Positions 3,605 to 54,469 of a stretch of DNA of 64,000 nt are shown in pieces. The position numbers and the translations under genes are program-made. Numbering within the stretch: position 1 is the stretch's first letter; every line of letters starts with the position of its first letter. The notes below the pieces were generated by a model. That model did not search any database. It saw only the letters and a list, made by a program, of their open reading frames with translations, and was not told the DNA's origin. The stretch comes from Bispira polyomma (lineage: Eukaryota), in NCBI GenBank assembly GCA_965649765.1, contig OZ287757.1, forward strand, positions 31,496,001 to 31,560,000, in the 5' to 3' direction.

Positions 3605-4790
3605 ATGAACAAAATATTAAAAGAAAACATGGCTAAACAATCAAAGGCGTTGTGTAAAAAGTGTGATGAGAGACATGTCCCACCTACAGGCAAGAAATGT
3701 AACAGAATAAATGAATTAACTGAGGCTTTCAATAGCAATGATCCGGATGTAGTGGAGGGCCATACAGTGTCGGACACGCAAGTCAGTACTGGGGCTGCAG
3801 TGCGCCGTGCAATGGGAGCCGCGTCGGCAGGCAGTGGAGAGAGGATCAGCAGGACAGTGTCCAGATGCAGATATTGAAGGAATTACAACGGGTGAATTCA
3901 CGACTGGACGTGGTAGAGGATCAGGTAACTGAATCCAGCGTCAGGCGACAGAAGGACTTGCTGAAAAGTGATGGACACAAGTTAAGTAAAAATTCCAAAT
4001 TAAGTAAAACTTTACAAAGTAGTGTTCAGTGTAATAAGCAGAATGTGAGTGATAGTACATCTGACAGTGAATCCTCAGATGAGGAGCAAGTCCTGCTCAG
4101 TTTGTCTGCCCTAAGAAGCTCTGCTTCTTTCCAATGCTGAGTTGACTCTAGGTTAAGGGAACTGGAAAGAGACAGCAGAAATACAGGTAGTGAAAGCTCA
4201 AATAAAATTAAGTCAAAAAGGGGAGGTGCAGTAGAAGTTAAAGTAAAGCAAAAAATAGCTTGGCCTCAAGAATCCATATTAGGAGGGGTTACTAGAAACA
4301 GGTTATCTTACGATCAGTTGTCCATGTCACAATGGGTGCAAGGGTTTTGTAAAAACATAAGTGAGGAACCGGACAGAAATAAAAAAGATAAAATGGTTTC
4401 ATACATGTCTGATCTGATGGAGGATGCTACTGATTTTATGTGGCAGGGGGCTAAGGCGGCACACGCAGTGCTCTTGTGCGAGATGGAGCGAGGCTCGCTC
4501 ACTTGGGACGATACAAATAGGATAGATCGGATCTGTAGGGCACATGCACAAAAGCACACAAATAATAGCAACTTTACTGGGAAAAATTGGGGTGGAAAAT
4601 CAGAGAGCAATAAGAAACCGTGGTTTTGTAAATTTTATCAAACAGGTACCTGCCAACAAAGAAAAGACCACGAAATCGGTGGCAAACTCCACAGATATAT
4701 TTGCTCACATTGTATAGCTACTGGTCGTGTCTTGGCTCATCCTGAAAAGGACTGCCTCCTTGCCAAGAAAAACCTAGGGCAAGCAAAACG
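3605..4790 (+). pseudogene. E1 gag-like ORF (frameshift near 3865, stop at 4138-4140)
   Basis: N-terminal CKKCDERHVPPTGKKC knuckle, coiled coil MQILKELQRVNSRLD, WQGAKAAHAVLL block and C-terminal Cys/His fingers; collinear with E4 gag. Confidence 0.88.
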
Positions 4791-7232
4791 AGTAAGTAGC
4801 TGTCCTCTAAGTCCTAAACTGGAGGGCAGCTGGGTTAGTACCAAAGCCAGTCAGTTACAGACGGTAGAAAGTAGAGAAGTTGTCAATGGTTTTAGTGTTA
4901 AAGAAAAAACAGATGGTGTTAGTGTTGATAATACCGAATGTGTAAATGTAATTGATAGAAATGTCAATCAAAAGCAGGCAGAGGACTCTGCCTATTTTAA
5001 ACGTATACAGCATGTGACAAAACATGCTGAGAGATGTTTTTATAACAAAAAAGTTAGAAAAAGTGATGTTGAGAGTTTGTTAGTTCGCCCATTACAAAGT
5101 ATTATGTGCACATTTAGGGCGGTGAATTGTAATGTCAAAAATAGGTCTTATGCTAGCGTAGTTAAGGCTAGGCAGATACAGATGGACACACAATGTCGAA
5201 CTAAAAAACACGAAATCCAGTCGCAGCGTGTCAAAGAACTCAACGCGAAGTGTGCCAAAGTGGGTAGTGGCGTTAAAACAAAAAATTTACAGGAGAGAAT
5301 CGATAATGTAAATCAAAAGGATGAAGTTTCCCCCCAAAAAAGTGAACAAAGTGACGCATGAGAATAATAACTCGGCGGAAACAATGAAACTATTGTTTGA
5401 TGTAAACGGCATGCAGGACGACATATTCATTAACTCCATATTGTTTCCTGACAATGGGCGTAAGTCAAAGCAAGTGGTGGGGGATTGTGACAACTTCACA
5501 AAGCAAAGCTTACAAAGCAATCAGAGTTTCAATTTGGATTTATTCCAATTACTGAACAAACACTACCAAGTAACATTGGCATTACAAAAACAAACATTCA
5601 ATGTCCAATTCAGTTACACAATGAAGTCAAAAAAGGGGGTCAGCCAAATTTCTTGGGGGCTTGAATACCAGTGGCATCTCAATTACACACACAACAATGG
5701 AAGGCCATGTTAAGTGATTATTGGGATCAGCAATTGCCTCAACTTATTGAGTTTGGGTTCCCTTTGGGTTTCAATCGCAAATGTGAACTCAGGTGTGATG
5801 TGGACAATCACAAGTCTGCAGTGGAATATCCAAATTATGTTGAAGTTTACTTAAGTGAGGAAAAAAGCCACGGGGCGATAATAGGGCCGTTTAAGCAAAA
5901 CCCAATTAAAAAAGGTCATCATTCCCCGTTCATGACTAGACATAAACCCAATTCAGACAACAGTGTTATAATACACTTGAGTTGGCCCAAAGGTTATTCA
6001 GTTAATGCAGGGGTAGAAAAAGACAGCTATTTAGGAGCAGATTTTAAGCTCAGCTTCCCCACGATTGATGATCTGACTAGGGAATTAACCAAGCTAGGAA
6101 AAGGCGCTCATATCTATAAGTTGGACGTGAGTCAGGCTTTCCGTCATATGAAAATTGATCCAATAGATTATGACCTGTTAGGACTCAATTGGAAAGGTAC
6201 TTCTATAGATACGTGCCTCCCCTTTGGGAGTTGGCACGGAAGCCTATTTTTCCAACGCGTTAGTGACGCTGTACGTTACGTCATGCGTCAGTGTGGCTAC
6301 AGCATTATTAACTATATCAATGATTTTTTAGGGTACGGCACACCCACGGTAGCAAAACGTTCATTTCAGTGTTTGTACAAAACTATGAAAATATTAGGTC
6401 TCACTATTAGTCAGAAAAAATTGGTGGCTCCTAGCACACAAGCAGTGTGTCTAGGAGTCCTTATTGACACAGTGCAAGGCACAGTTGCCATACCAGAAGA
6501 AAAGCTACCACAAATTCGTGTGACGGTTAGCCAATGGCAAATAAAACTCAATGTACCAAAAAACAATTGCAATCATTGTTAGGCCATTTGCTATACATTC
6601 ACAAGTGCGTTAAGTCTGCAAGATGTTTTCTAAATAGAATGTTGGAACTACTAAGAGGCATCTCAAATCCAAACAGAGTAGTCATAACAGAAGATTTCAG
6701 ACGTGACCTCAGGTGGTTTGACAGATTTTTACCTCTGTATAATGGTGTGTCCATGTATGGGCATAAGATTATTGACCAAACCCTAGAATTAGACGCTTGC
6801 TTGTATGGCTTAGGTGGTAGATGGAGAAATCTAGTTTACCATCTTCCAATTCCACTCAATTTTCAAAGTCTTGGCATAGTCCACTTGGAGATGATTAATA
6901 TTGTAGTAGCCTTAAAGCTATACCAAAGTTATTGGACAGGTAACAAGGTACTCATTAAATGTGACAACAAAGCAGTTGTGAATGTGTTGCAATCTGGTAG
7001 GGCTAGAGACCCTTATTTATCAGCATGCGCCAGAAATATATGGTATATGGCTGCAGTTGCAGACATTGAAATTCAGTATAGACATGTTATGGGTAAAGAT
7101 AACAGAATAGCTGATCTATTGTCCAGATGGAAAAATTCAAGTAATAATGTCCAAGAATTGAACACATTAGTGGAAAATCCAGTATGGTTGAAAACGTCCT
7201 TAGAATTGACTTATATTGATGATACATTGTAA
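4790..7232 (+). pseudogene. E1 pol (linker + RT + RNase H), frameshifted
   Basis: ORF pieces 4318-5361, 5321-5713, 5671-6582 and 6534-7232. RT motifs KLDVSQAF and LPFG; catalytic YIDD mutated to YIND. RNase H motifs DAC / LEM / CDN / NRIADLLSR. Confidence 0.92.
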
Positions 7233-7244
7233 ATAACAGATACT

Positions 7245-8237
7245 ATGCTTTGTGTTGTAGAGCCTGGAGCAGTGCAGGTGTTACAGAGAAAAGCTCACAT
7301 GAGGCTACATACTGCATTCAGACCAAAGACCAGGCGTTGCTACCAAAGCTTATTCAGAACTTTTGTGGCTTTTTGCCTTTGTGTAAATATAGCACTTGAA
7401 TCTATTAATGTAAATGGCATCATGTCTTTTCTGGAATATTTGGTAGTAAATAAAGTATCAGTGCATATGGTAGCAAATTATGTGGCAGCTATAAAGCTAT
7501 GTGTATTGTGCATGACCTCAGGTTCCAATTATTTGACCACCCGAAAATGAAATACTTTATTAAGTCGTTAAAAATTAATAGAGGTCACACCATAGTCAAG
7601 AGGAATATAATGGATGTGGATACTTTGAAGAGATTAGTAGTGCAGTGTGCACATATCAGTAATGCGCATGTATACAAAGCCATCTTTTTGACAGGATTCT
7701 TTGGGTTCTTGAGATTGTCAAATATTGCACCTCATGCTGTAAGAGAATTTGATTTAACAAGACACTTAACTGGGGCAGATGTGTTCTTCGAAAAGCACAC
7801 AGTAAAGATGCTTTTAAAGTGGACGAAAACTATGCAAAATAGGAATAAAGTACAAATTTTAACATTACCTAGGCTAGGCTCTGGTTCCATATGTCCATAT
7901 GCAGCCTTAAAACGATTGTTTCAACTTTATAATCCTGGCGAGAAAGACCCTTTGTTTCAGTGCAAAACGACAAAGGGCTGGCAGGTGGTTACAGATTCAA
8001 GAGTAAGAAAAACTTTGGCATTACTTAATACAAAATTGGGGTATCCAGCAAATTACTGCACATTCCATGCATTCCGACGCTCAGGTGCCAACGTTAGCTT
8101 ATAAAGCTCATGTTCCTATACAGCAAATTAAAGAGCATGGCACCTGGACGTTGGACTGCGTATGGACTTATATTCAGTCCAATACTGGTTCCACAGAGGT
8201 GGCTTCCACTTTCCAGCGCCTGCTAAATGTCGTATAA
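7245..8237 (+). pseudogene. E1 tyrosine recombinase (frameshifts near 7500 and 8090)
   Basis: FLRLSN (catalytic R) and HAFRRSG; in the shifted frame HGTW...VWTYI, stop at 8235-8237. Confidence 0.92.
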
Positions 8238-8306
8238 ATGTACATACCCCTAAGGTTGGGTTTGAGGCTTTTATTTTATGTACTTCAAAATAAACTCATG
8301 TGCAAG

Positions 8307-17432: not shown

Positions 17433-17438
17433 CTGGAA

Positions 17439-20103
17439 TTATAAATGAATATCGAATTCAAAGAAATTCAGTGGGATTTGGTGCCACACGAAATTCTCTT
17501 GCATTAGTACTGTTTGTTCCTTAGTTGAAAATTGATCTGAATAAACTCTTGAAAGTGCATCTGCTACAGTGTTCTTTTTACCTTTTATGTGCTCTATTTC
17601 TAATCGTATGTCATATGTGGCTGATAACAGCCATATGTTTCTAAGGCATAGTGCCAAAAAATCGTCCCTAGTCTTATTGGAGCCAACCACTAGAACTACT
17701 GCCATGTTGTCACAGAAAAATCTTATTACATTGTCGAACCACTGCTTTCCCCATAACTTAAGTGCTAGTATAATATTTAACATTTCAATGTGTACAATAG
17801 ACACTTGATTATTGTACACATTGTGGAAAGGTGTTGCATAAATTTGATTATTGAAGCACCCTCCAAGACCTGTGAGGCATGCATCAATGTATACTATGTT
17901 ATTGCTGTCAATAATTGGAGAAATAAAGTTGATACCATTATAGTTCTTAAGAAATTTTATAAACCAGCTTATGTCTGCTCTCATTTTGTTTGTAATTTTA
18001 AATCTTTTGGCCTGTGCATTGGCCCGGAATACCATTAGGAGTCTATTAATAAAAGTTCTGGCTGGCTTGACACATTTATGGACATACAGTAATTTTCCTA
18101 AAATAGATTGAAATTTTCCTCTGGAAATCCATTGTTTTTCATAGACCTCCTTACACAATTGAAACATTTTTTCAATTTTTTCTTGGGTAATACTGATGGT
18201 TCCTGCCTGTATGTCTATATCTATCCCTAAACAGGTGACCTTAGTGTCAGTGACAGTTTATCTGGATTGGTGGGGAGGCCTAAAGAATCTACTAACTTCT
18301 GTAACTCATCAAATGCTCTATTTGCTGTGTTTTTGTTCGATATGCAGACGTAGTCATCGATGTAGCAGAACACAGCCGAACGCGACCGCTGGACCGCTGG
18401 ATCCACGTACTTGTCATCTTCAAAGCAGATCCCTAACTTAATTGCATCAACCGGGTCAACTCGTAAATTTCTGAATGCTCTGGCCACGTCCAGTTTCATG
18501 ATTCGTGCTTCCGGTGTAACTTGTATTTCTGCCACAATATCGTCTATCATTGCAAATTTTAAAACAAATTTTGTACCGTTGAATTCTTGCTTATCTACAT
18601 TGTCATTAAATACCCCTTGAGGGTATGATAGATTTAAAATTACGCGGCGTTTGTTTGTGTCCTTTGGGCGTGGGAATAGTGGGGAGCAGTGGGGAGCAGT
18701 GGTATAATTTACTTCCTATAGTCTTTACTGGGCACAACATGGCACCATGGGCACTTTCTTTCTCTAGATATTCCCCAACTGCCGTCATATAACTGGAGGG
18801 CAGAATAGTGGTTGTTTGCTTCTTGTATATTCAATTGATCAGGTTTGGTGAGAGATAAGGGGAAGCCGAATTTTAAATATTGAAATAATAATTTGTCTGT
18901 GTGATCTCTCAGGATTTTCTCCCAGTTGTCTAGATTTAAACCCGAAACCAGTGGTATTCTTGCCCCTCTTGGGAACCCCAGTTGAGTGAATAATATTTGC
19001 AATATCTAATAATTGTGGTATGCTTGATATAAGAATAGGCTCCCTATCTCGGCCTTGAAATGTAAAGCTTGTGTCTGATAATACAATGAAGCCCTTATCC
19101 TTATTAGGCACGTTAATGTCATAAAGCTTTTCCTTATTGGTAAGTTTCTTATCAGTGGAAAAATTTAGAAAATTGTCAAAGAGGTCGGACGACGCCATGA
19201 TTATCTTGTCCTGAACATCCTTGTTCACATTATGTACTTTATTCACATTACATACATTATTAAATGTATTAATACTATTTTTCTGCAAGTCAGCTTCATT
19301 CACTTCTAAAATATCGTCTATAATTCCTGTGATGTGACTAGTATATGTATTATAGTTGTTTTAATACATTCAATATCTTTGTTGTAGTTGTCATATACCT
19401 GTTTGGGTGTTAAGTCACCCATATCTAAATGAGTATCATTCAAACTGTAATTGACATCATCTGTGAATTCAGTTAATGTCACTTCAGTCACTATAGTATA
19501 CAAAATGGCCAGTGGACTAGTTGGTAGCTGTTCACATTTAATGTAGTTGCATAGTTGCTGACTGACATTATATTGCTGGACAAAGAACCCTGCTATGTTT
19601 GGTTTCTGAACCTTAATATGTAAAACTGGTAGTGGGTAATCCCAATAATTGAACTTATGTGACCAATTTGTCACTTGTATGGTGGCATTAGCCATTATTG
19701 TGTTTGCAGGCTTGTTTAACCAGTTATTATCATTAATCTGGTTATCACATTTCCTGTTCTGGGGGAGTACATTATTGCTACCAACTGTTTGCAATGCATT
19801 TGTATACAATAGTATATTATTGCTCTCAAATAGTATTTGTTTTCCTTGCAATACTCTGGCTTTTGTTTTACATGCTTTGGTAACGTCCTGGAAGATTTCA
19901 GCTGTTGTACTACAGCTTGAACTAAGTTGTGACTTCTGTTCATTAACAGTTGCTAAACTGTCTTCTAGATTACATACAGCTTTACTGACCTTTTCAGTTT
20001 CTAATTTTCTCAACTTTACATCACTATCAAGTTTTTTAAAATTATTACTCGACTTAACCTTGGTTACATTTGTTCTATCACATCTGCTAGCTTTTAAATG
20101 CAT
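17439..20103 (-). pseudogene. E2 pol (long linker + RT + RNase H), fragmented
   Basis: LKFGFPL, KLDVARAFR and YIDD; the RNase H ORF 17439-18167 has DAC / IEM / CDN / ADALSR. Several frameshifts and an internal RT deletion. Confidence 0.88.
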
Positions 20104-20226
20104 ATTCTAATGGACACTAATTGAATCACGTCTATTAAAATTTAATATTACAGTACAATAAACCCTATTGTTATTACCCCCAATACACTTTCCAAAAGTT
20201 CGTTTCACTAGTAGTTGGCCAATCTC

Positions 20227-21443
20227 CTAACTGCTGTTATTCGCTTTAACCTCATGTTGTTTAGATGAATTCGACTGGTAGCACTTGAATTCTGGGTGCA
20301 CTACATCCTTATGAAGCAAAGTGGCACAGTGCCAGCAAATGTGCCTGTTTTGCCCGTGATCTGTCTTGTTGTTACATTTGCCTGTGTTGTAGAGCTTACG
20401 AATGGTCCTGGAAGAACTGGACGACTGATTGCTATGTGAGTTGTGCGAGCCGTGAGAGTGAGATGAATGTGCCATGGCCATCTGTGATGCGTTGAGGCAA
20501 TTCAACGCCCACTGGGTGTTGTCACTCCACTGAAGGCGACCCTCTTCTATCTTGTGTATATTATGCAACCACAAAGTACGAACCACTTACCACGGAAGTG
20601 AAGCAGCATCCCGAAGAGATAAAATGACTTGCTGACACATTGCTTTTGAAATGACCGGGTCTGTAACCTGCATGGCATTGGCCAATTGCCCCGCCGCCCA
20701 CTTGGGTAGTGAGAGCTCGTCAAACATGGGCCGTTTCCTGGATGTTCCCCCCACCCAACCTTCATTTGCCCACCTTAGTTTGGGGTCTGCATCAGGGTAC
20801 ATCTGTGCTATTAAAACGCCCAGACCTTTGACATGGGGTCGGCTTACCTTGGGCAAGTGTCTTCTGTGCTTGGATCTCGTACTCTGCCAGCCGTTTATTG
20901 ACTAGTGCTTGAACGTCGGGCAGTGACTTCAATACATCCACTGTAGGCACTCTAGCGTCGGCCGTGTAATTGGTGTGAGCAGGAGGAAGCGTTGGCTGTG
21001 ACGGTGCAGTTACTACAGGTAATGGGTTTGCTACAGGCAGGTTGGTCTGTGTGGTAGCAGCCAGCCAGGTAGTATTCTGGCCTACCCGTGTTTCCATCTG
21101 GTCTAGATGATTCGTGATTCGTTCGTTGGATTTTGCGAGTTTGTCCAGCATCACAAGCATTGAAGCCATAATCTGTCCATCCGAATTCGGCCCTATGGGG
21201 ACGTTATGGTGCTGCTGGAAGCTTTGTAAACGAGGATCTACTGTCATGGCTGTGTAACCATTGTTATTGTCAATGGGAATCTGAGCAGATAATACCTGGT
21301 TCAGAGGGGTCTGTATCTCCGTGGTGCAGTTGTCACTGGCGTCACTGTTCACTAATTTTCGTTGTGAAGTTTTAGCTTTGCTAGTACTTTTACTAGTCTC
21401 TTTTTTTCTTGTTTTCTGATGGTGTCTTTTTTGTTCTACCCAT
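20227..21443 (-). pseudogene. E2 gag-like ORF, fragmented
   Basis: Pieces 20792-21352, 20587-20856 and 20227-20586 with FDELSLPKW, IEEGRLQW and C-terminal HICWHC...HPEFKC. Likely start ATG at 21443. Confidence 0.75.
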
Positions 21444-31477: not shown

Positions 31478-31483
31478 CTGAAA

Positions 31484-33613
31484 TTATATATCAGTATTTG
31501 GAATAAAAACCCGTGGGCAAATTTCCCACCAATTACAATCATAAAATTTCTCACATAATGTTAATGACACACGACCAGAAAACCAACGTGAAAGGCAATC
31601 AACGTCCTGATTGTTAGCACCATAAATGTGAGCATAATAAACTTGTATATCAAGGCTAGCTGTCAAAAGCCAAATAGAACGAGCATAAGCCATGAGTATA
31701 GAATCCCGTGAACAGCCCGAGTTCAATACAGCCACAACGGCCTCATTGTCACAATGAATTCGTATAAGTTTGCCTGTAAACAGCGAGTGCAACGTGTTAA
31801 GCATGACCCAAATATTTGCCATTTCCAAGTGCACTATAGTATACAATTCAAGGCCATTAGTTGGGTATGTAGCTGCATAAACATTAGTACCACACTTGGC
31901 CCCAACTCCTGACAAGGAGGCGTCAACATATACTTCAAAATCAATATTTTTGTGGTCGTGTATCATGACAGTACCATTAAACAAACACAGGAACTGATTA
32001 AACCATGCTAGATCTTGATGGAAGCCCTCAGAGAGGGGAATTCTATCAGTAGTGGCTGCCCGAAAACACTGCAGCATTCTATTTATAAATAATTGTGCTG
32101 GACGCACACAACGATGAACATACAATAAACGTCCCATAAGTGACTGAAAACCCCTTTTTGATGTAAATCGCCTATTTTTCCACCGACTACAACAGGTTTT
32201 AATTTCAGGTTATTTCTCAAGAGGTATTTGAACAGTACCTTTTTCAGCGTCCACAAGTATGCCCATACAGACTACTTGCCTACTAGCAGGAACTAATTTC
32301 TTGCTATTAATAGGCAAACCTAAATTATGCATTAACTGGTAAAGGGTATGATAAGCAGAGGTTGCTCGCTCAACACTTTGGACACCAATGACGTCATCGA
32401 TGTATCCTAGAATAGTGTAATTTTGAGAATGCATAGCAAAATGTAAAAAGTCCACCAATCGCTGCATTAATCCTGAGCCGTGCTTGTAGCCAAACGCTGC
32501 CGCCACGTCCACATAGAACTTATCATTCCAAGACAATCCCATGACGTCATAGCCACCAGGGTCTATTCGGAGGTTCCTGAACGTGCGACTTACGTCGATT
32601 TTATATAAATAAGCATCTTTGCCTACTCTAGCAATTTCATCAATAATGTGATCAATAGTGGGATATGTCAAACAAAAATCGTAACCGTCGTACACGTTAT
32701 CCTGAACACAACTATTTACAGAGACATTTGCTGGGTAAGAAAGATCAACAATAATACGACGTGAGTCGTTTGATTTGGGCCTAGACAATAAAGGCGAGAA
32801 ATGCATGCATTGGAATGGCTGTTTGTCGTAAGGTCCTGCCATAGCTTTATGACTGGTTTCAGTTGCAAAATAAATGTCAACGTCCCTAGGATATTTGAGA
32901 GCCGAGCTGTGATTATCTACCTGTGTATTAAATTGGAATTTTCCTCTATCCACACAAAGTGGGAAGCCAAATATCAAATACTCATATAAAATGGGGTCAG
33001 TATAATCTTTTAGCAAATCAAGCCATAAGGGCAGATTCAATTCCGAAGGGACTTTAATACGTGCTGATTTATAATTTGAAACCCCTGTTTTAGCTACGAT
33101 GGCATGAGCTTTAGCCACCCAGTCATCAAAAGAAGTGAAGGCCACTTGGGAATATGAACCAGACAAACAGTAATTACTAGGGCATGCTCGAATAAACCCA
33201 AAATGTTGGGTGTAGCGAGATTTAACACCAAGGGTGTATATAGGTAGAGTATCGGCCTGAGAAGAAGCACGTGTTTCAATACTTGTGACACTAAGGTCTA
33301 TATTTGGTAACGTGGAACTTACATCTACAGGGACACTTGATATATCGGAACTGATATTATTATCATTCACTATGAAACCATCAGCAACCTTTTGCATAGG
33401 TACACGAATTTGCTCAGTAATTTTATCCACATTACTATTACCATTAAAACTACTTGTACAAAATTTTGAATTAACAAAAACCCGAGAATGAACATATTTT
33501 GGCTGTTTATGTCCATGATTTTTAGTTTCTTGGAATTTTCCAATAAAAACAGAACCCTTTTTAGCAGTAAATATTTGTGTACGCCTATGCAAGTTTACTG
33601 TTTGGTAACCTCA
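31484..33613 (-). pseudogene. E3 pol (RT + RNase H), interrupted near 32210
   Basis: ORF 32210-33592 has KIDVSRTFR and YIDD; ORF 31484-32137 has DAS / LEM / CDN. Confidence 0.92.
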
Positions 33614-34799
33614 TTTTTTGGAGGTCTAACTTCTTTAATTTTTCTCAAGCAAGTACTCTCACTATGACCAAAAAATTTCTTGGTTATACCATGACAATAT
33701 GCACACCCATGCTTATGGAGTTCATTTCTTTCCACATGATCTGATTTCTGATGGCATTGACCCTTATTGTAGTTACGACAAGGTACAGCTGTAAGAGACT
33801 GAGCGGCTTTCAATTTTGAAGCAGTGTTTGAAGGGTAAACTACTCTTTGAGTATACCTATCTTTGAAATATCTTGAAATATCCTTCTCCATTTCTTGAAG
33901 TAAAATTTTGTGGGCTGTTTTAGCAGTAAACCAGCTCGTATCTTGACCATCCTGAAGTAACTAATGGCCATACCTTAACATATTCTGCTGAACTACAGCA
34001 TTTTGCTCTTGCAGAACACAACCCATAAAACCCTGACAAAATTGTACTGAGGTAAGCTCATCATATACAGGAGATTCCCTATCAGGTCCTAAACCAAACT
34101 CGTGAGGCCAATTTATACTAACTTTAGCAAAAGTGTCTCCTACTCTATACAACCCAGATTTAATCTTTTTACCTTGCACCCCATCGAAGTGGTCATGTCT
34201 GTCTGCTAAATCTAGTTGTGTCAAATGTCTATTAACTTCTGTCTGGATGGGCTGGTTTTCCCTCTGGAAGCTCATGGTAGGGATGATCCCGCGCTCCAGT
34301 TTGTCGAGTTCTGCATGGTAGTCTCTGGCAGGAGTAGGACGAACAGCTCTGGCTTCGGTAGTTGCAGTGGACGGCACATACCCAGTCCTCTGGGTAGTGA
34401 CAGGAACAGCCGTGGCAGCTCGGGTGGTAGTTGCAGACCCAGGTACAGCAGAAGTTCTAGCAGATAGGAAAAGATCCATATCTTTCTCTCTATCTTGTTT
34501 CAGTTGTTGGACCTGACCCTCGAGCTTCTGTAAATGAGCCATTATCTGATCCAACTTGTCTACCTGAGCCCTATTATCTGACCCTTGGTCCAACGCCACG
34601 GTACTAGCTTCACCAGAGCTCTCCTCTCGCTGTGGCTGGCCTGGAGGTATCTGTGTATCAGTGAACATTTCAGCCTCAGCCATATTGCCTAAGTTTGTCC
34701 TGACAGCAAACCGACAACCGTCACCAACTGGCTTGTCGTGTTTGACTAAACAGTGGTTACAAAAAGCAGATTTTTCCTTACCTTACCAGGTGGAATCAT
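33595..34799 (-). pseudogene. E3 gag-like ORF (in-frame stop at 33961; frameshift near the start)
   Basis: The frame upstream of ATG 34683 encodes CNHCLVKHDKPVGDGC, the same knuckle as E1/E4. A 5-bp duplication (GTAAG x2, ~34777-34786) disconnects it from ATG 34799. C-terminal CRNYNKGQC..H..HGCAYC..H....C. Confidence 0.85.
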
Positions 34800-34972: not shown

Positions 34973-35087
34973 ACACATGAAACTGCTTCCAGTTTCTATA
35001 CAAATGTTTGTCCCAGCTAATAACACATGAAACTGCTTCCAGTTTCTAAAACCAATGGTACACCCACACGAAACTGCTTCCAGTTTC
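34973..35087. repeat. Three copies of the hairpin GAAACTG-CTTC-CAGTTTC in the E3 5' leader
   Basis: Exact 18-mers at 34979, 35029 and 35070. Confidence 0.9.
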
Positions 35088-43906: not shown

Positions 43907-44150
43907 TTTGAATATTTAACGTCCACTCTAGTACCTTTTAGTAGGTTATATTGGGACGGGTAGTTGGAAACGCTGGAGGAAACACTGCATACAGTCGGTC
44001 AAGGTTCTGCAGAGAAACCAGCGGCCCACAGTAAGGAACTACCACCTTTCCCACATAGGCATCGACGGGATTCGAACTCACGCCGCCCAGAGGTGAGAGA
44101 CCAGTGATTGTGAAGCGCAATGCTTGCTAACCACTAGGCCACTGCGGCCC
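43907..44150 (-). mobile_element. tRNA-derived SINE, family 1 copy d
   Basis: TSD CATTATTGAATAGAA at 43892 and 44151; empty paralog near 27881. Confidence 0.93.
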
Positions 44151-45339
44151 CATTATTGAATAGAAAAACAACTTTTTAACAAGTGAAAGAAATTTACCTC
44201 AAACCATCTATATGGAAATAAATGCCAAGAGTCTGAAGCATGATGAAATGAGAGTTTTATCGTTTCAGTGTCACTCAATGCTTATAAGTTTTGTTATCAG
44301 AACTTGTTTTCTTGTGGTTGTCCATGCTTGACATTTAGATTGTCTTAGGTAAGGTTTAGCTAACTAATACATCTTGTGTGTTTACCACTAGTAAATATAC
44401 AAATTTAGTGAATCTGGGACGTGATTCACAAACATTTTTAGAAGACCGTTCTTAGAATTTTCTTTGTCTCAGGCAATCAGATTCTTTGTAACAATATTTG
44501 TAACAAATACAATTGGTGGACACAAGATTTCAAGAATTACTGTCTTTGTGAATATACCAGCCCTGGCCCCAGATCCATAGATATGTAACAAAGGAATAGT
44601 TGTAAAGTATTTATTCGTTGGGTGTAACACTCCTGACAACTGACAACAGAATGGTTTATTTTGTCGTCCACTATGTACTTTGTGAGATACAACCAAGTTA
44701 AAATAGGAAATATTGGTGATTGGTAACCTTGTCTATAAGAGCCTTATTAAATACATCATTGAAAATTATCAATAAACTTGAGCAAAAATATGTAGGGAGG
44801 ATGTTACAAACATCTACTGTCGATGGCTATGGACAAAGATGACTTTCAAACAAACATGGGGGCAAGTCATAACAAGAGTTGCCTTTTAAAAAAGACATTG
44901 ACACACTCTGTGATTAACACCTCTCAGTTTGGCTGGGTCGATTGCCTCCACCAATCCACAAATGCATTTCATATTATTTCTAACATGGTGGTACCCTTTT
45001 CTACGTTGGCACTCTTGCAGAGTAAAAAAACAAGATCACACCAAACTTGATAAAAATAGATACTAGCTCAGTAAATAAACAAACTTAGTTATAACTAGAT
45101 CATAGTGGTTACACAACAGGGAACATATATGCCATGGCGTAATTAGCTAGTGCTTCAAGTAAGTGGGGTAAAGCGTGATATATTTATTATCGCTACCGGA
45201 TACAGTCCAAACGTCCAAAGGTCATGAAATTAATTAACACTACATTTGGATTTGAAATCTTATTATATAATGTATATATACTTGTTTTCAATGCATATAC
45301 ATAACAATATTATAAATATTTTTTACAAAAGGTATAATA

Positions 45340-45592
45340 AATTTGAATTTGGATATTTAACGTCCACTCTAGTACCTTTTAGTAGGTTATATTGAGACGG
45401 GTAGTTGGAAATGCTAGAGGAAACACTGCATACAGTCGGTCAAAGTTCTGCAGAGAAACCAGCGGCCCACATTAAGGAACTACCACCTTTCCAACATAGA
45501 CATCGACGGGATTCAAACTCACGCCACCCAGAGGTGAGAGACCAGTGATTGTGAAGTGCAATGCTTGCTAACCACTAGGCCACCACGACCCC
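45340..45592 (-). mobile_element. tRNA-derived SINE, family 1 copy e
   Basis: TSD ACAAAAGGTATAATA at 45325 and 45593. Confidence 0.93.
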
Positions 45593-46681
45593 ACAAAAGG
45601 TATAATACAATGCACATGAAATATTGTTGTAATTTACAGTTGGAAGCCAAGAACACTACTGGAGGCTATTTATAAAATTGCATTAGTGTTAGCGAAAAGT
45701 TAAAACCATATAATTTTGAAAATAATGCCTATAAATAAATTACTGAGGGCAGAATCAAAATGTAAATGCACTTGTATAAGGTGGTGTCAGCCTGAGTGAC
45801 TGGCAGGTCTTGTGACTGATGAACGGAATCAACTTAGTATAAGAACAGGATAATTGTAAATGTATATGTAAAAGATGTACATATTTTAGAAAACCACCCA
45901 GGCAGTTTTTTGTCATTTATGCAAAGAGGGGTTATGTTCCCAAGACGATTCTGAGAATAACTAATATATATTTTTAAATATTTGCTTATATCTATATAAC
46001 ACAATGCAATAAGATTGCAAATAGACTAAAACGTGAAACTCAATATTATACAACTGTTTCACTCGTGGTGTCTAGGCTTCACGGGAGTCAGTCCTGCCCC
46101 CCTCTTAAAATTCTTAAGTTACCAGCCTGGTTTTGACAGGTAAAAAGTAAATGACATCATAAGGAATTCCACTTGTTACTAGGGGTTCAAATGTTTATTC
46201 TGAATTCTCATTGGCTCCCAACTTGGGGTATGCTTAAGAAATCCATTTTACCTTCAGTTTAAAATTTTCTAGTCAACAGCACAGACGTGCTGAGAGTTTT
46301 TTACAAGAATTTGTTTTTAAAAGTTAGATTTACAAATGTTTGGGATGAAACTGAACTGTCTTAGTGATTTTAGTCGTCAGTTATACACATGTGCATGGAA
46401 TTAATTACAAATTGAATATGTACATAACACTGGAAGTCGTGTATTGATGATTGGAAGTTCAAAGCAATTGTCAGTGTTGAAGCCCAGCTGATCTGTCAAC
46501 CTCATGCTTGGTTCGCCCGAAAGGGCAGCAAAAAGGGACGGTCTAACCTATTTCTGTTACTCACCACTAAATTGGGTTCTGAAACTTGAATTGGTTGGCC
46601 AAGCGTGAATTTGTCAAATCAGCACTGAGGGATTTGTTTTTCATCTTGTTTCAGAAAGGAACATTGACTTAAAAAGTAAAA

Positions 46682-47797
46682 ATGCCACAAAGCAAATCAC
46701 TATGTAAAAAGTGCATGAACAGACATTTACCCCCAACCGGGAAAAAGTGTAAACAAATGGAAGTGCTTGAACAGGTCACCCGCCAGTCTGACATGTCAGA
46801 CGCCACAGACACCCCAGTTCGTGGAAGACGGGAGGCAGCAGCGTCGGCGCCAGGAGGGATAGACAGCGTGCAGATGCAAATACTCAGTGAACTGAAGAAG
46901 GTCAACTCACGGCTGGATGCAGTTGAGGAGCAAGTTGCAGATGTGAGAGCAAAGGAGACAGACTCTGAACGGGACTTGCAAAAGTTAAGTACTGGTTTTC
47001 ACAAACATTCTCGTAAAGCTAAAAGAGGTACAAAAAGTAAAAAGGTGTGTGATAGTGACAGTTCCTCTGATGAGTCAATAGTACCCACTATGTCCGTGTT
47101 AAGGTCCTCCCAAGAGATACAAAGAGAAGTAGACAACAGATTGAGGGAATTAGAGCACGAAGGGGTCTGTCATGCAGGTAATTATTTTGTTTCAAAAATC
47201 AAATCCAAAAGGGGGGGAAATGTTGACGTGATTGTAAAAAATAAGGTGGCCTGGCCACATGAGTGCATACTAGGGGGAAATAGTAGGCAGAGGCTTGCAT
47301 ATGACCAGTTGTCACTCACACAGTGGGTACAGGGATTCTGTAAAAATATTTTAGATGAAAATGATAACTCACTCAAAGAAAAGATGATACAATACATGTC
47401 TGAGCTGATGGAAGACGCCACAGATTTTTCGTGGCAGGGGGCAAAAGCGGCCCATGCGGTCCTCTTATGCGAAATGGAGAGGGGAACTGTCTCATGGCAG
47501 AACACTTCTCGCATTGAAAGGATACGCAGGGCCCATGCACAAAAACATTTACTGGGGCAGGGCAAATCTACTTGGGTCAAAAGCAATGAAACGGGCAAGA
47601 AACCTTGGTTTTGTAAAAATTTCCAGAACGGGAGCTGCACTCATAGTAAGGATCATGAGTTTGGGGGGAAAACTTACAGGCACATCTGTTCTCATTGTCT
47701 GGAAAAGGGCAAAGAACTAAATCATGCAGAAAAAGATTGTCATTTTGCAAAAAAGAAAGTATTTTCAAAAAACGAGCATGTGGCTGCTCAACTTTAA
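46682..47797 (+). CDS. gag: Gag-like protein (N-terminal CxxCxxxH knuckle, coiled coil, C-terminal Cys/His fingers)
   Basis: 371-aa ORF; CKKCMNRHLPPTGKKC; CKNFQNGSCTHSKDH...HICSHC...HAEKDC; conserved with E1 and E3. Confidence 0.88.
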   Translation: MPQSKSLCKKCMNRHLPPTGKKCKQMEVLEQVTRQSDMSDATDTPVRGRREAAASAPGGIDSVQMQILSELKKVNSRLDAVEEQVADVRAKETDSERDLQKLSTGFHKHSRKAKRGTKSKKVCDSDSSSDESIVPTMSVLRSSQEIQREVDNRLRELEHEGVCHAGNYFVSKIKSKRGGNVDVIVKNKVAWPHECILGGNSRQRLAYDQLSLTQWVQGFCKNILDENDNSLKEKMIQYMSELMEDATDFSWQGAKAAHAVLLCEMERGTVSWQNTSRIERIRRAHAQKHLLGQGKSTWVKSNETGKKPWFCKNFQNGSCTHSKDHEFGGKTYRHICSHCLEKGKELNHAEKDCHFAKKKVFSKNEHVAAQL

Positions 47798-50265
47798 ATC
47801 CGAGTGAGGGCAGCTACGAAATGAAACTCAGACATGAAGGTTGTAAAAATGTAAGTGGTGAACAAAAAGCTTCTAGAAATGTAGTGAAACCAGTCGTTGT
47901 GTGTAAAGAAACCAGTAGATATACACCTCCAGTGCAGGGTGATCATTTTAGAACCAGAGTGTTTTATAATAGTCAGATTAATGTGAAAGAAACACAGTCT
48001 TTGATGGCTCGTACAACGCTCCAAAGTTTTAAGTTTAGGAACACACATGTTGTCTGGCCCTGTCAGAATACGGCTAGTAAAAGCATGACCAGAACCTTCT
48101 ACTCTCGAAAACAAAAACAGGCCGACATTAAAAAACAAGATCAGGACATTGGGGGCTTTTGTCAAAAGCAATATGGTAATACCACAGAATCCAAGATCGA
48201 TTGTGCAGACAAAAGGGTCGCAAAAACATTAGAATTGGACTCGGCAGACAAATTCAGGGGGCATAGTGACACGTCAGGTCACAACAAGGCATCAAGGGGG
48301 GACACGGGTAGCGACATGTGTGTTTCTAATCTTAATGGTGACAATGCACAAGGAAATGCCCACGCAAGTAATGTAGAGAAACCCATAATAGGTGGGTCAA
48401 AGGGTGTCACAAAGTTATTATATGATGTGAACAAATATTCCATTGATGACAAATTTATAAACTCGGTACTTGGTAGAAAGAAAGTATGTGAAATGGACAG
48501 TGTAGCACTAAATAGTGTTTTTAGTTTCACAAAGTGGAGAAAACAGTCTCAATTCGAGTTTGGATTTATTCCATTATCCGATGCTGTGACCGATGACAAC
48601 GGCGTATTACCTCACCACAGTACTGTGGTAGATCCGATTATGCAACACTTTGTTATCCAAAAAACTGGTGTTCATAATTTCAAAGGTGCGCGTATTCCGT
48701 TAAACTCCCAGTTAAAAGTCAAAAACTGGAAAAAGCATTTAGTACATTATTGGGATCAGCAATTGCTTCAGCTTATTGAGTTCGGCTTCCCACTAGATTT
48801 CAATAGACAGTGTCCTTTAAGATGGGAAGGGGGAAATCATAAGTCGGCCACAGAATGTCCCAAAGATATAGAAGTGTATTTGGAAGAGGAAACCAAACAT
48901 GGCGCCATAATCGGCCCTTTTAGTGAGAATCCAATCAAAACGGGTCACTGCTCCCCTTTCATGAGCAGAGAAAAACCCAATTCGGATAACAGAAGGGTGA
49001 TAGTAGACCTTAGCTGGCCTCCAGAGGCTTCCGTTAACGCAGGGGTGGACAAAAACCAATATCTAGGTCGTGAGTTTAACCTGACCTTTCCCACGGTTGA
49101 TCATATAACGGCTGAACTCAACAAGTTGGGTAGAGGAGCGTTCTTGTACAAAATTGACGTCAGTCGTGCGTTCAGGCATGTGAAAATCGATCCTCACGAC
49201 TATGACCTGCTAGGTCTTTCTTGGAAAGGGGCATATATTGACACCTGCTTGCCATTTGGTAGTAGACATGGCAGTCAGATCTTTCAAAGATTGAGTGACG
49301 CAGTGCGTTACGTAATGCGTTGTCATGGTCACAGCGTCGTCAACTACATAGATGATTTTATAGGCTACGGCACGCCGTCGGTGGTGCACCACTCATACAA
49401 TAAACTATTGCAAACGTTGCAAGACTTAGGTCTAACCATTAGCCAAAAGAAACTGATACCTCCTGCAACTGAGGCAGTATGTCTGGGCGTATTGATAAAC
49501 ACGGTAGAGGGTACAATATCAATACCCAAAGAAAAACTCGAACTTATACAAAAAACGGTCGAACAGTGGCATCATAAAAGTACTTGCACAAAACGTCAAC
49601 TGCAGTCATTGCTCGGGTTGTTGTTATATGTTCACAAATGCGTTAAGCCTGCCAGAACCTTTCTGAATAGAATGCTTGGATTGTTGAGATGTTCATATAA
49701 TCAAAGTAGTATTAAACTCACAAGTGATTTCCATAGGGATCTCAGGTGGTTCAGTAGGTTTCTGCCATTGTACAATGGGGTTTCCATGTATGACCATAGG
49801 TGTGTGGATCACGTACTGGAATTGGATGCCTGCCTCAGTGGCCTGGGGGGAGTTTGGAAAAATTGGGTGTATCATTTCCCCATAACCAAAGGTTACATGA
49901 GCTTAGGAATAGTACATCTGGAGATGGTCAATATTTTGCTGGCCTGCAGGCTTTTTCAAAGGGAATGGACCAAAAAGAAAGTACTGATAAAGTGTGACAA
50001 TCAAGCAGTAGTGTGGGCCTTACAAATGGGCAGAGCTAAGGATCCTTTTTTGGCTGCCTGTGCAAGGAACATCTGGTATGTCGCGGCATTGGCTGATATC
50101 GAATTCCAGTACGTCCATATTCTGGGTAAGCAAAATAGAACAGCTGACCTCCTGTCAAGGTGGCAAAACACTACCGAAAATTACAATGAATTGCATAAAT
50201 ATGTTACTAAACCTGTATGGCTAGCACCTGTGATACAAATGATCAATGTAGATAACGAGTTGTAG
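47695..50265 (+). CDS. pol: Reverse transcriptase / RNase H (probably entered by -1 frameshift at 47767-47773)
   Basis: 856-aa ORF with KIDVSRAF, LPFGSRHG and YIDD; RNase H DAC / LEM / CDN / ADLLSR. No protease, DDE integrase or methyltransferase motifs seen. Confidence 0.95.
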   Translation: MSGKGQRTKSCRKRLSFCKKESIFKKRACGCSTLNPSEGSYEMKLRHEGCKNVSGEQKASRNVVKPVVVCKETSRYTPPVQGDHFRTRVFYNSQINVKETQSLMARTTLQSFKFRNTHVVWPCQNTASKSMTRTFYSRKQKQADIKKQDQDIGGFCQKQYGNTTESKIDCADKRVAKTLELDSADKFRGHSDTSGHNKASRGDTGSDMCVSNLNGDNAQGNAHASNVEKPIIGGSKGVTKLLYDVNKYSIDDKFINSVLGRKKVCEMDSVALNSVFSFTKWRKQSQFEFGFIPLSDAVTDDNGVLPHHSTVVDPIMQHFVIQKTGVHNFKGARIPLNSQLKVKNWKKHLVHYWDQQLLQLIEFGFPLDFNRQCPLRWEGGNHKSATECPKDIEVYLEEETKHGAIIGPFSENPIKTGHCSPFMSREKPNSDNRRVIVDLSWPPEASVNAGVDKNQYLGREFNLTFPTVDHITAELNKLGRGAFLYKIDVSRAFRHVKIDPHDYDLLGLSWKGAYIDTCLPFGSRHGSQIFQRLSDAVRYVMRCHGHSVVNYIDDFIGYGTPSVVHHSYNKLLQTLQDLGLTISQKKLIPPATEAVCLGVLINTVEGTISIPKEKLELIQKTVEQWHHKSTCTKRQLQSLLGLLLYVHKCVKPARTFLNRMLGLLRCSYNQSSIKLTSDFHRDLRWFSRFLPLYNGVSMYDHRCVDHVLELDACLSGLGGVWKNWVYHFPITKGYMSLGIVHLEMVNILLACRLFQREWTKKKVLIKCDNQAVVWALQMGRAKDPFLAACARNIWYVAALADIEFQYVHILGKQNRTADLLSRWQNTTENYNELHKYVTKPVWLAPVIQMINVDNEL

Positions 50266-50267
50266 AT

Positions 50268-51281
50268 ATGGAATTAATGATGCTATGCTTTGTTTCAGGG
50301 CACAGGCTCCTTGAGAAGCTGGGTGCACAGGCTAATACAAGGTTGAAATCTGCCTTCAGACCAAAGACACAGAGCTCCTACACACAGCAATTTAGAACTT
50401 TTGTGGCTTTTTGCGTGCATGTGAACGTGCATTTGCAGGCAATGTCTGTACAATGCATAATGTCTTTTCTGGAGTTTCTGATGTTTAATAACATATCAAG
50501 CCAAATGATGGCGAATTATCTCTCAGCTATAAAGGCTAATTTCACAATGCTGGGCCTTTCTGTGGTCCCCTTTCAGCATAACAAAATAAAGTATTACTTA
50601 AAAGCTGTAAAAAGGAATAGACCATTGTCGGTCACAAGACATAATATATTAGATATAGAGATGCTAACAAACATCATATCCCTTTGTGATAGCTTCAAAC
50701 TGGGCGTGGTCTTTAAGGCGGTTTTTCTGACTGCCTTTTTTGGCTTTCTGCGCATTTCGAATCTAGCACCACATTCTGTGGCTGCCTTTGACAGAACTAG
50801 GCACTTAACCCCAGCTGATCTATTCTTTACAGGCGACTCTGTCAAACTACTTATAAAATGGACCAAAACTCTGCAAAATAGGGATAAAGTGCACATCCTT
50901 ACTCTCCCAAAGCTTTCTAATCATAAACTTTGCCCATACAAGGCCTTAAAACACTTGCTGAAACTATGCAAACCACTCAGATCAGAACCCTTATTCCAGT
51001 TTGAATCCTGTCATCAGTGGCAGGTGCTTACTGATACACGTATACGTAAAGTTCTAGCAGCAATAAATGTAAAAATGGGTTTGGCACCAAACCACTTTAC
51101 TTTTCACACATTCCGGCGTTCGGGTGCCTCGTTTGCTTATAATTCAGATATATCGATACAACAAATCCAGCAGCATGGCACTTGGACGTCGGACTGTGTC
51201 TGGACATACATCCATGGGGATGCCACCATGAGTGAGAATGTTGCTAAATCCCTGCAGACTACACTAAATGCGATGATGTGA
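50268..51281 (+). CDS. Tyrosine recombinase (phage-integrase family)
   Basis: 337-aa ORF with the full catalytic set: FLRISN (R), HTFRR (HxxR), HGTW, VWTYI (Y). Confidence 0.95.
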   Translation: MELMMLCFVSGHRLLEKLGAQANTRLKSAFRPKTQSSYTQQFRTFVAFCVHVNVHLQAMSVQCIMSFLEFLMFNNISSQMMANYLSAIKANFTMLGLSVVPFQHNKIKYYLKAVKRNRPLSVTRHNILDIEMLTNIISLCDSFKLGVVFKAVFLTAFFGFLRISNLAPHSVAAFDRTRHLTPADLFFTGDSVKLLIKWTKTLQNRDKVHILTLPKLSNHKLCPYKALKHLLKLCKPLRSEPLFQFESCHQWQVLTDTRIRKVLAAINVKMGLAPNHFTFHTFRRSGASFAYNSDISIQQIQQHGTWTSDCVWTYIHGDATMSENVAKSLQTTLNAMM

Positions 51282-51405
51282 TTACCCTACGTTTCATTGG
51301 GCTTTGAGGGTTCTTCTAATGTTAATTGGTATGGTCTTATACGTATACATGTCATTTAAGTACTTATGTAATATAACTATGGTGAAGGTGACAGTAACAT
51401 GGCTC

Positions 51406-51618
51406 TAAGGTCGCCTAAACAGGTTAAGATAACCTTAAACTAATTAAGGTCACCGCTCGATGGTGAACCAATTTTTGAACATAAGTTAAGGTAACCTTAA
51501 TGTGGTGTAAAGTGTAATTTAAGGTCACCTGACGTTGGTGACCTAGTTTGAAGTGACAATAGTCAAGTTAAGTTCACCTCAAACTGGTTGTGTAAAATTA
51601 AGGTCATCTTAGATGGTG
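51406..51618. repeat. Array of TTAAGGTNACCTTAA palindromes in the E4 3' region
   Basis: Copies at 51406, 51424, 51444, 51486 (perfect), 51519, 51568 and 51598. Confidence 0.8.
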
Positions 51619-52244
51619 ATTGTATGGTATAATGTAAGCTTGTATAATCTTGTATAACCTGGTGTGATATGTAAATAAATAGTAGTCATAACGTTTGTAT
51701 ATAATAAAAGAGTACCCGCAATCATGCGCTTGTTTATGACTTCGGCTTGGGGAGGTGGGGACTGAACAGTATGACAGCATACAATACTCTAATACAATTG
51801 CAACTTGTAACATTTTTACCACCAAAACATATAGAAAAACTACATGACTTGGAGAAAATGAACAGTTTTCAAAGTCCTATTCCTGTGTACTAGAGGGGGT
51901 TGGCTACAAGTGCAGTTACCAGGGTGCAAGATGAAAAAAAAATATTTTCATCTTTCTCTGTGCTAAAGCTAATATCGATAAATATGTAGCAGAGAGGCTA
52001 CTGTTGGACCATTTTTGTCATTTATTTGTGCTTGAAAATTAGTCAGGAACAAGACCAGAATATATATAAAACTACACAAGTTTGCAAACAAAGGGGGTAA
52101 GGCTTTAGTGTTGCATTTTTGTATAACAAATATATTTAAAAAGACTACAGGTACAGTTAGAGCAGTGCAATAAGAATTCTACCTCTGTCAGCACAAGAAC
52201 TAATACTAAATAAAGCTTCTTATTGCTTTCATTAGGGCTTAGAA

Positions 52245-52497
52245 TTTGAATTTGGGTATTTTTACGTCCACTCTAGTATCTTTTAGTAGGTTATATTGGG
52301 ACGGGTAGTTGGAAATGCTGGAGGAAACACTGCATACAGTCGGTCAAGGTTCTGCACTGAAACCAGCGGCCCACAGTAAGGAACTACTACCTTTCCCACA
52401 TAGGCATCGACGGGATTCGAACTCACGCCGCCCAGAGGTGAGAGACCAGTGATTGTGAAGCGCAATGCTTGCTAACCACTAGGCCACCACGGCCCCC
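52245..52497 (-). mobile_element. tRNA-derived SINE, family 1 copy f
   Basis: TSD CATTAGGGCTTAGAA at 52230 and 52498; empty paralog at 59681. Confidence 0.93.
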
Positions 52498-54469
52498 CAT
52501 TAGGGCTTAGAAGTAAGATTTATTTGCTGTCTGTTGAAACAAATATTTTCATCATCATAGAAGTAGAGAGACACTTAACAATGGACTTAAAGCTCTCCTT
52601 TTTCAGATCCTTACATAAATTAATAGTAGTGTGGTTTACCAATTAATTACTGAGATGTCATGGATGAAGTTATGGTATCCAATATTATTGATATGTTGCA
52701 TATAAGACAAAATAATAACATAATGTTTACATACAGTGAGCCAAATTTAATGGTAAACTTTGTTCTGTACAATGTGACTTTTTTGCCCTGTTTGAATTGA
52801 TCTGTACATGTATTTTTTGTGTATTTGTGGTTTTTATAGTGTTTTTGCCGACCCCAAGAAACTGGTCTGTGATACTTATTTGTCATTTATGATTATTTTG
52901 GGGTGTTTAATTTTACACATAATACGTCAGAACATTGAAAAATACAGCCTGGTTCAGGGAGGAAATAAATAATGTTTCATCTGCATCTTTTATTAGGAAT
53001 AAGTAGATTCTGTAACCCAAGCTGTGACATGGAATTTCTGCATTGATTGTAGGACAAAGTTCCAATTTAACGGCTTAGACATAAAAATTAAAGAATTTGT
53101 ACGCTTCTATATAATGTGTATATATGTTTTTACCTGTGAGGAAGCTTGTGTATACTTAGCTAATAACTTGTAAATTGGCAACAAATATGTAGGCAACAAA
53201 TATGTAGGCAACAAATATGTAGTCTTTTTTTTAAGTTGGATCTATTGCAATGTAATTTATGTTCATACCCTTCAGAGCTTGTATCTCACTCATGCCTAGC
53301 TCATCAGACCTGGACTGCTAAAAAGTCATCGACCTTTAGAGTTTTCAAAGTCAATCAAAAATCCAAGTGAGTAACTGTATTTTAACTCGCTTGTGAAGGT
53401 GAGAAGTCTGCTTTATTGGACTGTATATATTATACATCAAATTTTAACCCTTAGGTTGTTGACTAGCAGCTAACGGCATGTATTACTCCTAGAACATATG
53501 TCTATTGGCAAGTAGTTGACACTCCCAAAATATAGTTTTTTTCCTTTAGTTCGTCGCAGTAGGAAATTGTTATTACAGCAAACTCCCTTGTTTACAAAAT
53601 TAATATGTGAAGCAATTATTAAATGAAGCTACTAGTCTGTGGTGGTTTTTTGCGTGAATCCAGCTATCTGTAACCTATTACTTAAAAAATGCCCTACAGT
53701 TCCGAGCAATAGTTTTTTCTTAGGTCAAAAGTGTTAACCCTATTTTACAATATCATTAAAGAACATGATTCTGTGATGTTTCAGAAATGTGTGTCATTCT
53801 TGTTAATTGTGAACCAGCTTGTATATTCTTTTTGGATGCACTTATTGCCACAGGAGTGCAATAATGATTGACTAATTCTTATCAGGTTTCTATCACCCCT
53901 TATATGTTAAATGGTATGGCCCGTATTTACCAATTTTAAAGATTACAACAATGATTGACCAAATTACATCAGGTTTCTATCACCCCTAATATGTTAAATG
54001 GTAGGCCCCGTAATTGCCAATTTTAAAACGGAGCTTTTTATTAAATGGAAACAATAGTCTATTAGGAGAACAAGAGTAGATTTCTCGAAATCATATTCCA
54101 TCTGGAGGGAGGCTATGTTGGCAGTGTCTCGAGTACAGAAAGTTACCTTTTCTATAGCTTAAGTTAAGCAGAAGGATATGTGTCTTTTTGATCTGTGGGT
54201 TCTGGGGTCTGCAAAATCTATTGTCAAAACTTGTTGTTTTGTGTTTTTACCATATTCAGCAATATTGAAAAACTTTAATAGGTAAACAACTTATTATTGT
54301 TGCGATACATTGATTAACTAGTAAACATCGGTTTCAAAATTGTTTTGTGTCATAGTTTCACATATTTACACTTTATCTGTAAATTATCTATAAACTTAAT
54401 ACTCAAGTATGTTTAGGACTTTATGTGTGTGTCCTAGACCACTGTTTTTGGTATTGATAGCAACATTGG

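Follow-up and report, generated by a model that had tools for sequence, protein, structure and literature searches.

Partial splicing separates the genome from a subgenomic message in the env mRNAs of retroviruses, the pol mRNAs of foamy viruses and the gag RNAs of copia/EVD, and the known spliced products are Env, Pol or Gag, not a fusion of Gag with a recombinase. A closer case is found in MLV where, as described in PMC10496198, an alternative donor in gag joins an acceptor in the end of pol, and the resulting SD' RNA (SDARE) encodes P50/P60. According to the same source, P50 consists of the N-terminal part of Gag and the last 116 aa of the DDE integrase and is an accessory protein, the active integrase being derived from Gag-Pol.

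Ngaro-like elements are defined in PMC9210276, PMC3783388 and PMC8547959, the last of which describes solo A-B relics for Ngaro, and PAT-like and DIRS-like elements are stated to carry a methyltransferase domain after the RNase H (PMC4157794, PMC3783388). Their recombinase (YR), following Poulter and Butler (2015) as quoted in PMC13003380, lies in the -1 frame with an overlap with RT/RH, and its expression is probably by frameshifting. No description of a splice between the N-terminal half of gag and YR (Gag-N/YR) was found in the accessible parts of the literature, including PMC9341512, PMC7192593, PMC2632668, PMC6681497, PMC4157794, PMC8547959, PMC10496198, PMC3783388, PMC12477816, PMC9210276, PMC13003380, PMC9940879 and PMC4495291; a mention in the core Ngaro reviews, in supplements or in Repbase/Dfam annotations is possible.

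In this study, four elements were analysed from a stretch of 64,000 nt of Bispira polyomma (contig OZ287757.1), referred to here as the window. It appears very likely that their YR is translated from a subgenomic RNA made by splicing. The donor would be a phase-1 site at a Gly codon in the middle of gag and the acceptor a site at the end of pol, and the predicted product of the join is a fusion of the Gag N-half with YR.

Elements in the window and their classification

The genome containing the window is 1.035 Gb. The window holds four elements, E1 to E4 (Table 1), each with gag-like, RT/RNase H and YR frames in this order on one strand. In pol, Pfam returns RT and RNase H-like families only, and the frame stops about 35 residues past the last RNase H motif; neither Pfam nor inspection of the C-terminus gave a methyltransferase after the RNase H of the kind found in PAT-like elements. 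YR takes the place of a DDE integrase (PF00589, E 2.5e-5, which is under the curated cut-off, plus SAM-like matches), and its catalytic motifs are invariant or nearly so across 29 sequences. In L002, a copy 99.7% identical to E4, the repeats are ordered A1...B1 A2 B2, with a spacer of 275 nt between A2 and B2; A1/A2 (245 nt) and B1/B2 (458 nt) are each 100% identical. The terminal repeats of E4 and L002 are direct only, without the inverted terminal repeats and ICR of DIRS-like elements. By the published definitions, the four elements are Ngaro-like YR retrotransposons (order DIRS), and not PAT-like or DIRS-like. In an RT tree of 38 rows, built without reference Ngaro, PAT or DIRS sequences (six of the 44 chosen lacked a full RT match), E4 and E3 fall into two distant supported clades, interleaved with metagenome loci.

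Solo A-spacer-B relics are present in the genome (e.g. C10:48512055-48513007 and C5:16812788-16813741), and many genomic copies, E4 of the window included, end at B1; both are expected from recombination between the repeats. One copy of the L171 family has a doubled A2-B2 end (C11:27521614-27524348). A degenerate unit of about 7 kb, apparently non-coding, is also repeated at least three times in the window (28.5-40.6 kb and 52.5-64 kb), and one of its copies is interrupted by E3 in the interval from about 29.6 to 36.2 kb. Six copies of a dispersed repeat, about 280 nt long and SINE-like by size, lie on both strands (12488-12744, 15424-15675, 26673-26935, 43876-44159, 45317-45600 and 52221-52504).

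Table 1. Coordinates of the elements, frames, repeats and predicted introns in the window
Feature	Position	Strand	Remarks
E1 element	about 3045-8701	+	gag and YR both broken
E1 predicted leader intron	3126-3594	+	
E1 predicted intron	4187..7260	+	
E2, degraded copy		-	repeats at 16116-16252 and 21560-21694
E2 predicted intron	17433..20847	-	join out of frame
E3 element	30272-35730	-	
E3 predicted intron	31478..34172	-	2695 nt
E4 element	46059-51764	+	
E4 A1 direct repeat	46059..46304	+	5' end of element; matches A1 and A2 of L002
E4 predicted 5' leader intron	46140..46654	+	CAG/GTAAAA ... TTGTTTCAG; 27 nt before gag ATG
E4 coding exon 1 of predicted fusion	46682..47177	+	165 codons plus 1 nt
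E4 gag-like ORF	46682..47797	+	371 aa
E4 predicted intron	47178..50298	+	3121 nt, phase 1; removes gag C-half and all of pol
E4 pol frame (RT, RNase H)	47659..50265	+	-1 relative to gag; Pfam RVT_1 E 2.6e-10
E4 YR exon	50299..51281	+	R, H-x-x-R, H/W and Y catalytic motifs
E4 B1 direct repeat	51307..51764	+	window copy stops here, without A2 and B2

Predicted splice sites and the joined reading frame

A preliminary description had placed one donor in the middle of gag and one acceptor just after the pol stop in each element. All eight sites read as written, and phase 1 was confirmed for the four donors, which are CAG/GTAATT at 47178 in E4, CAG/GTAGTG at 4187 in E1, AAG/GTAAAA at 34172 in E3 and AAG/GTAAGC at 20847 in E2. 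The fusion of about 492 aa that had been predicted for E4 is obtained when its exons are joined: 165 codons plus YR give 492 aa with no stop and with the junction peptide as given. The joined exons of E3 give 527 aa, also with no stop.

An in-frame join had been claimed for E1, E3 and E4. The junction itself is in frame in all three, but an open fusion does not follow for E1, a copy which is broken elsewhere. Since the gag halves of both E1 and E2 are broken, the open fusion comes from E3 and E4 only. In E2, described as out of frame with a YR start that looks deleted, the join indeed enters a frame other than that of YR, and YR lacks about 13 codons at its start; the donor codon is Gly only in the upstream gag frame, the downstream motif being shifted. 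As also claimed, the YR frames of E2 and E3 lack an ATG upstream of the first YR helix. E1 and E4 do have an in-frame ATG at this place.

Conservation of the donor

Conservation of the sites and of their phase had been named beforehand as one of the tests that could refute a spliced fusion. It was run on copies from the same genome and from metagenome records, and in both the sites and phase are kept far beyond what the protein would need. For the E4-type set, 60 of the 124 YR matches to E4 were fetched, which with the four elements of the window gave 64 sequences, or 28 families at 85% DNA identity. An anchor in the C-half of gag could be located in 50 of them, and the other 14, without the anchor, were left unscored for the donor. 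The donor reads AG/GTA in 48 of the 50 scorable copies, AG/GCA in one and TG/GTA in one.

The use of codons at the donor was compared in 14 family representatives, eight of 22 having been dropped for stops. Among the 12 that are aligned in the donor column, Gly is encoded by GGT in 11 and by GGC in one, and never by GGA or GGG; the remaining two also carry AG/GTA. This is the most biased of 20 four-fold columns in the aligned gag stretch (0.92, the next being 0.64), and each of the seven further columns of conserved Gly has three or four codons. The Gly codon is flanked by an invariant A on both sides, at the third position of the codon before it, which encodes four amino acids in the set, and at the first position of the codon after it, which encodes five; each is at the top of 72 variable columns. 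The codon bias and the fixed flanking bases indicate a constraint on the RNA and not on the protein. In the E3-like set (40 of 126 matches to E3, related copies that were left unclustered), the best donor near the motif is in phase 1 in 30 of 35 copies; such best-site counts come from scoring matrices that are approximations, and counts across families do not represent independent events, as the families share ancestry.

Conservation of the acceptor

The acceptor motif TRCTATRCTTTG..YAG matches in 56 of the 64 E4-type sequences, always in phase 1. The eight misses comprise four other motif types (E2, E3, L059 and L060) and four mutated copies. The spacing between the motif and the AG varies (1-3 nt), which puts the motif in differing frames relative to YR while the phase of the AG stays fixed, and the ATG within the motif reads ATA in many families. 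The motif as a start peptide of YR was ruled out by this ATG/ATA variation and by the frame shifts. Among the E3-like copies, the best acceptor AG is in phase 1 in 33 of 40; four of the seven misses chose an upstream AG with the homologous in-phase AG present, and one has lost the site. At the protein level, similarity starts immediately 3' of the acceptor AG.

In the E1/E4 clade, a TRCTATRC motif is conserved 8-11 nt before the acceptor AG (50283-50290 in the window, and homologues). It resembles the usual branch-point consensus but does not fit it, and it may serve as a branch point or have a regulatory role.

Translation of YR from an ATG of its own, with reinitiation after termination at the pol stop or with transcription from an internal promoter, would make these AG sites incidental. 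E4 has ATGs a few bases past the pol stop; for 24 of 48 families, including those of E1 and E4, every copy has an in-frame ATG upstream of the first YR helix; and prokaryote-style gene calls often begin there. However, there is none in 19 of the 48 families, among them young multi-copy ones, and in five more it is present in some copies only; therefore, an own ATG cannot be the general route. Both the behaviour of the motif that holds the ATG, with its ATA forms and shifting frame beside a constant AG phase, and the beginning of protein similarity right at the AG also speak against this route, which we consider very unlikely.

The same sites in other organisms

Seventy-eight metagenome loci with 25-44% YR identity were collected, of which 56 with a YR start formed 48 clusters. 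Comparisons with control windows in this set are strong contrasts and not exact probabilities, given the approximate matrices and the shared ancestry: the best AG in the 76-nt window before YR is in phase 1 in 44 of the 48 clusters, against 23/48, 13/47, 21/47, 15/47 and 22/44 (94/233 in total, with lower scores) in five windows shifted into YR, and the best GT in the 36 codons before the KSG-type motif falls at a phase-1 Gly in 13 of 14 gags, against 14 of 70 in five control windows. The gags of L082 and L096 are without the KSG-type motif, and in these two the best donor falls at a phase-1 Gly a little further along. At the protein level, Gly followed by K/N/T/S/I/M/R stands before the motif in 62 of the 65 motif-bearing matches, and in 7 of 65 in the upstream window.

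These families also bear on the proposal that ribosomes undergo a programmed -1 frameshift where pol ends, which would give a Pol-YR fusion. A short -1 overlap of pol and YR is seen in E4 (7 nt) and E3 (4 nt), such an overlap is the commonest single class (15 of 44 families in this genome and 20 of 46 metagenome clusters), and in one copy, L176 (4016-6466), pol and YR lie in one open frame of 816 codons. However, YR is in the same frame, in the +1 frame or non-overlapping in 55 of the 90 families, with gaps of up to 293 nt. A slippery heptamer lies within the -1 overlap in 6 of 44 and 1 of 46 families, respectively, and E4 has none. Moreover, a frameshift leaves the mid-gag donor unexplained, and we regard it as a highly improbable source of YR.

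L176 still keeps the acceptor, and its sister L177 is without the pol-YR fusion. The overlap of gag and pol in E4 is about 140 nt long and in the -1 frame (47659-47797), and contains slippery-type heptamers at 47666, 47749, 47767 and 47793; thus, a frameshift may produce pol even if it does not produce YR.

A precise Gag-N/YR join in two records

Two records, L126 and L127, are 99.2% identical and have YR but no pol. Their YR differs from that of the pol-bearing L138 by 14 mismatches in 1293 columns and carries the same lesions, and the match begins exactly at the TTTTGCAG acceptor of L138. Ahead of YR, 139/139 residues are identical to the N-half of a full Gag, P0282, which continues with Gly-Glu-Gly, and the break falls after the first base of that Gly. 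Only one G is common to both sides of the junction. This speaks against a deletion by microhomology and against a (k-mer) mis-join during assembly, both of which were therefore rejected for L126. It was also ruled out that L126 is the element's own spliced form, since its gag differs from that of L096. As L096 is the closest full relative of the YR side, the join is chimeric, and it is likely to come from a nested or neighbouring insertion. The YR of the two records is broken; they may share one study, and the molecule, RNA or DNA, is unstated. With the parent acceptor known and the parent GT predicted only, the join shows what appears to be a precise, in-phase use of both kinds of site across families. 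Taken together with the conservation of sites and phase, this join in two records of related elements strongly supports the spliced Gag-N/YR fusion that had been proposed.

Scans of IMG/VR and GTDB gave no match to the parent gag DNA of L126. Another member of the P0282 gag type, P0285 (488 aa), was considered as a Gag-YR fusion and rejected, as its gag runs into a DIRS-order-like RT. A distant relative of this gag type in the genome of the window, L139, has CAG/GTGAGA at a like Gly-Glu. L139 also has an in-phase TTTTCAG acceptor inside the conserved RNase H end (L139:4040-4056, G000:C9), at this one locus only; an acceptor in this position would account for the small overlap of pol and YR that has been published. 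L126 carries an SGNH/GDSL hydrolase ORF (865-1536; PF13472, E 5.9e-12) immediately upstream of its gag N-half, and weaker homologues are located downstream of YR in L071, L080, L086 and L102.

Predicted leader intron and other possible uses of the acceptor

A leader intron is predicted, with its donor in the A repeat and its acceptor 16-50 nt ahead of the gag ATG, and a similar pair is found in most of the E1/E4 clade. The leader acceptor scores at least 3 in 15 of 41 clusters overall, compared with 1-7 of 41 in six control windows. Since the leader intron of E4 holds 10 ATGs, the unspliced genomic RNA may be a poor gag message.

The YR acceptor might be real and yet be joined to this other donor, which is conserved in A1 of the E1/E4 clade, so that YR would be free-standing; L126 shows that acceptors are reachable from a foreign donor. 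However, the leader exon of E4 has no ATG, and beyond the acceptor the first Met comes at residue 48, within the N-terminal domain. E3-like families show no evident leader intron, and the mid-gag donor and its phase would be left unexplained. This reading is scarcely probable, as is its variant in which the splice is real and the fusion is cleaved, or the Gag part gives only a start codon; for cleavage, Pfam reports no protease domain in pol. A phase-1 splice from gag to YR remains our preferred explanation.

Searches for spliced products

Three sequencing runs mapped on E4 contained no joint at 47177/50299; their depth is flat, multi-copy and DNA-like, and has no bearing on expression. In protein collections, which consist mostly of gene calls made without regard to introns, none of 150 Gag-N homologues runs on into YR, and a weak search found no YR protein longer than 403 aa; the best 120 of 413 YR matches are gene calls of 255-381 aa. 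The eight matches of the L126 Gag-N are all unspliced gags. For intron-less copies, four families gave 1406, 1945, 3099 and 882 first-look candidates, and none was found among the 35, 28, 31 and 21 that were scored (115 in total).

Structure of Gag and a possible mechanism

The N-terminal half of Gag had been described as a knuckle and a coiled coil. The CCHC finger and the coiled-coil helix are present, and a second conserved helix has to be added to them. In E4, the Gag consists of the CCHC finger, the coiled-coil helix (60-95), the second helix (144-164), a linker, a folded core (170-292) and C-terminal Cys/His fingers. The conserved second helix ends at the donor, and the AlphaFold pLDDT is below 50 at residues 164-169 around it; the donor is thus placed by the model in a predicted flexible linker directly after the last conserved helix of Gag-N. 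The core is modelled with confidence (pLDDT 89). Its best Z is 4.9, with no Foldseek match at E 0.001, and neither the whole Gag nor the core gave a fold match in PDB or BFVD; these searches did not lead to the assignment of a capsid fold. The neighbours of Gag in the ESM Atlas are unnamed clusters.

The likely scheme is as follows. The unspliced RNA would serve as the genome and as the message for gag and pol, and a fraction of it would be spliced to give Gag-N/YR, which would be without the core and the C-terminal fingers. Partial splicing, from a donor that is usually without a G at +5, would set the dose of YR, and gag would provide the start codon that is absent from many YR frames. It is a speculative guess, towards which we are somewhat more sceptical than inclined, that the finger and coiled coil of Gag-N oligomerise with full-length Gag and thereby load YR onto the RNP that makes the cDNA.

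If the splice is true, the real YR protein would have about 490-530 aa, with a zinc finger and a coiled coil in front, and would not be a stand-alone enzyme of 330 aa. Biochemical and tool work with these recombinases would be affected, as would the choice of copies to be regarded as intact. The host spliceosome and small-RNA pathways would gain a control point over integration, and the elements would have a cis-loading route for their integration enzyme without a polyprotein or a protease.

Comparison with known systems

The elements share with Ngaro the order of gag-like, RT/RNase H and YR frames, the split direct repeats, the lack of a methyltransferase and the solo AB relics; the E4 family differs from published Ngaro by the 275-nt spacer between A2 and B2. 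PAT-like elements are alike in having YR with RT/RNase H and split direct repeats, but carry the methyltransferase (PMC4157794, PMC3783388) that is absent here. DIRS-like elements also have YR with RT/RNase H, and are set apart by inverted repeats with an ICR and by the methyltransferase. In published Ngaro, YR is a separate and often overlapping ORF for which a -1 frameshift has been proposed (PMC13003380), whereas the evidence here points to a spliced Gag-N/YR fusion. A conserved splice would replace the guess of a frameshift given for YR expression in the review quoted in PMC13003380.

It is possible, at close to but below an even chance, that the Gag-N/YR splice is a general and ancient route to the integration enzyme in animal Ngaro-type elements and in at least one unrelated gag type. 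The phase-1 sites would then be interchangeable between families, so that splicing could shuffle Gag and YR modules, and the Gag half would load YR onto the element's own particle, doing the job that the Gag-Pol fusion does for integrase in LTR elements.

A donor in gag and an acceptor at the end of pol stand here in matching phase, as in splicing of the SD'/env type. The SD' RNA of MLV is packaged and re-integrated (PMC10496198), whereas no intron-less copy was found among the 115 scored candidates of this study. MLV SD' is the nearest precedent, as both have a donor inside gag, an acceptor at the end of pol and, here by prediction, an in-frame fusion of the N-terminal part of Gag with an integration enzyme or a part of one. 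The difference from MLV P50 is that here the whole YR would depend on the splice.
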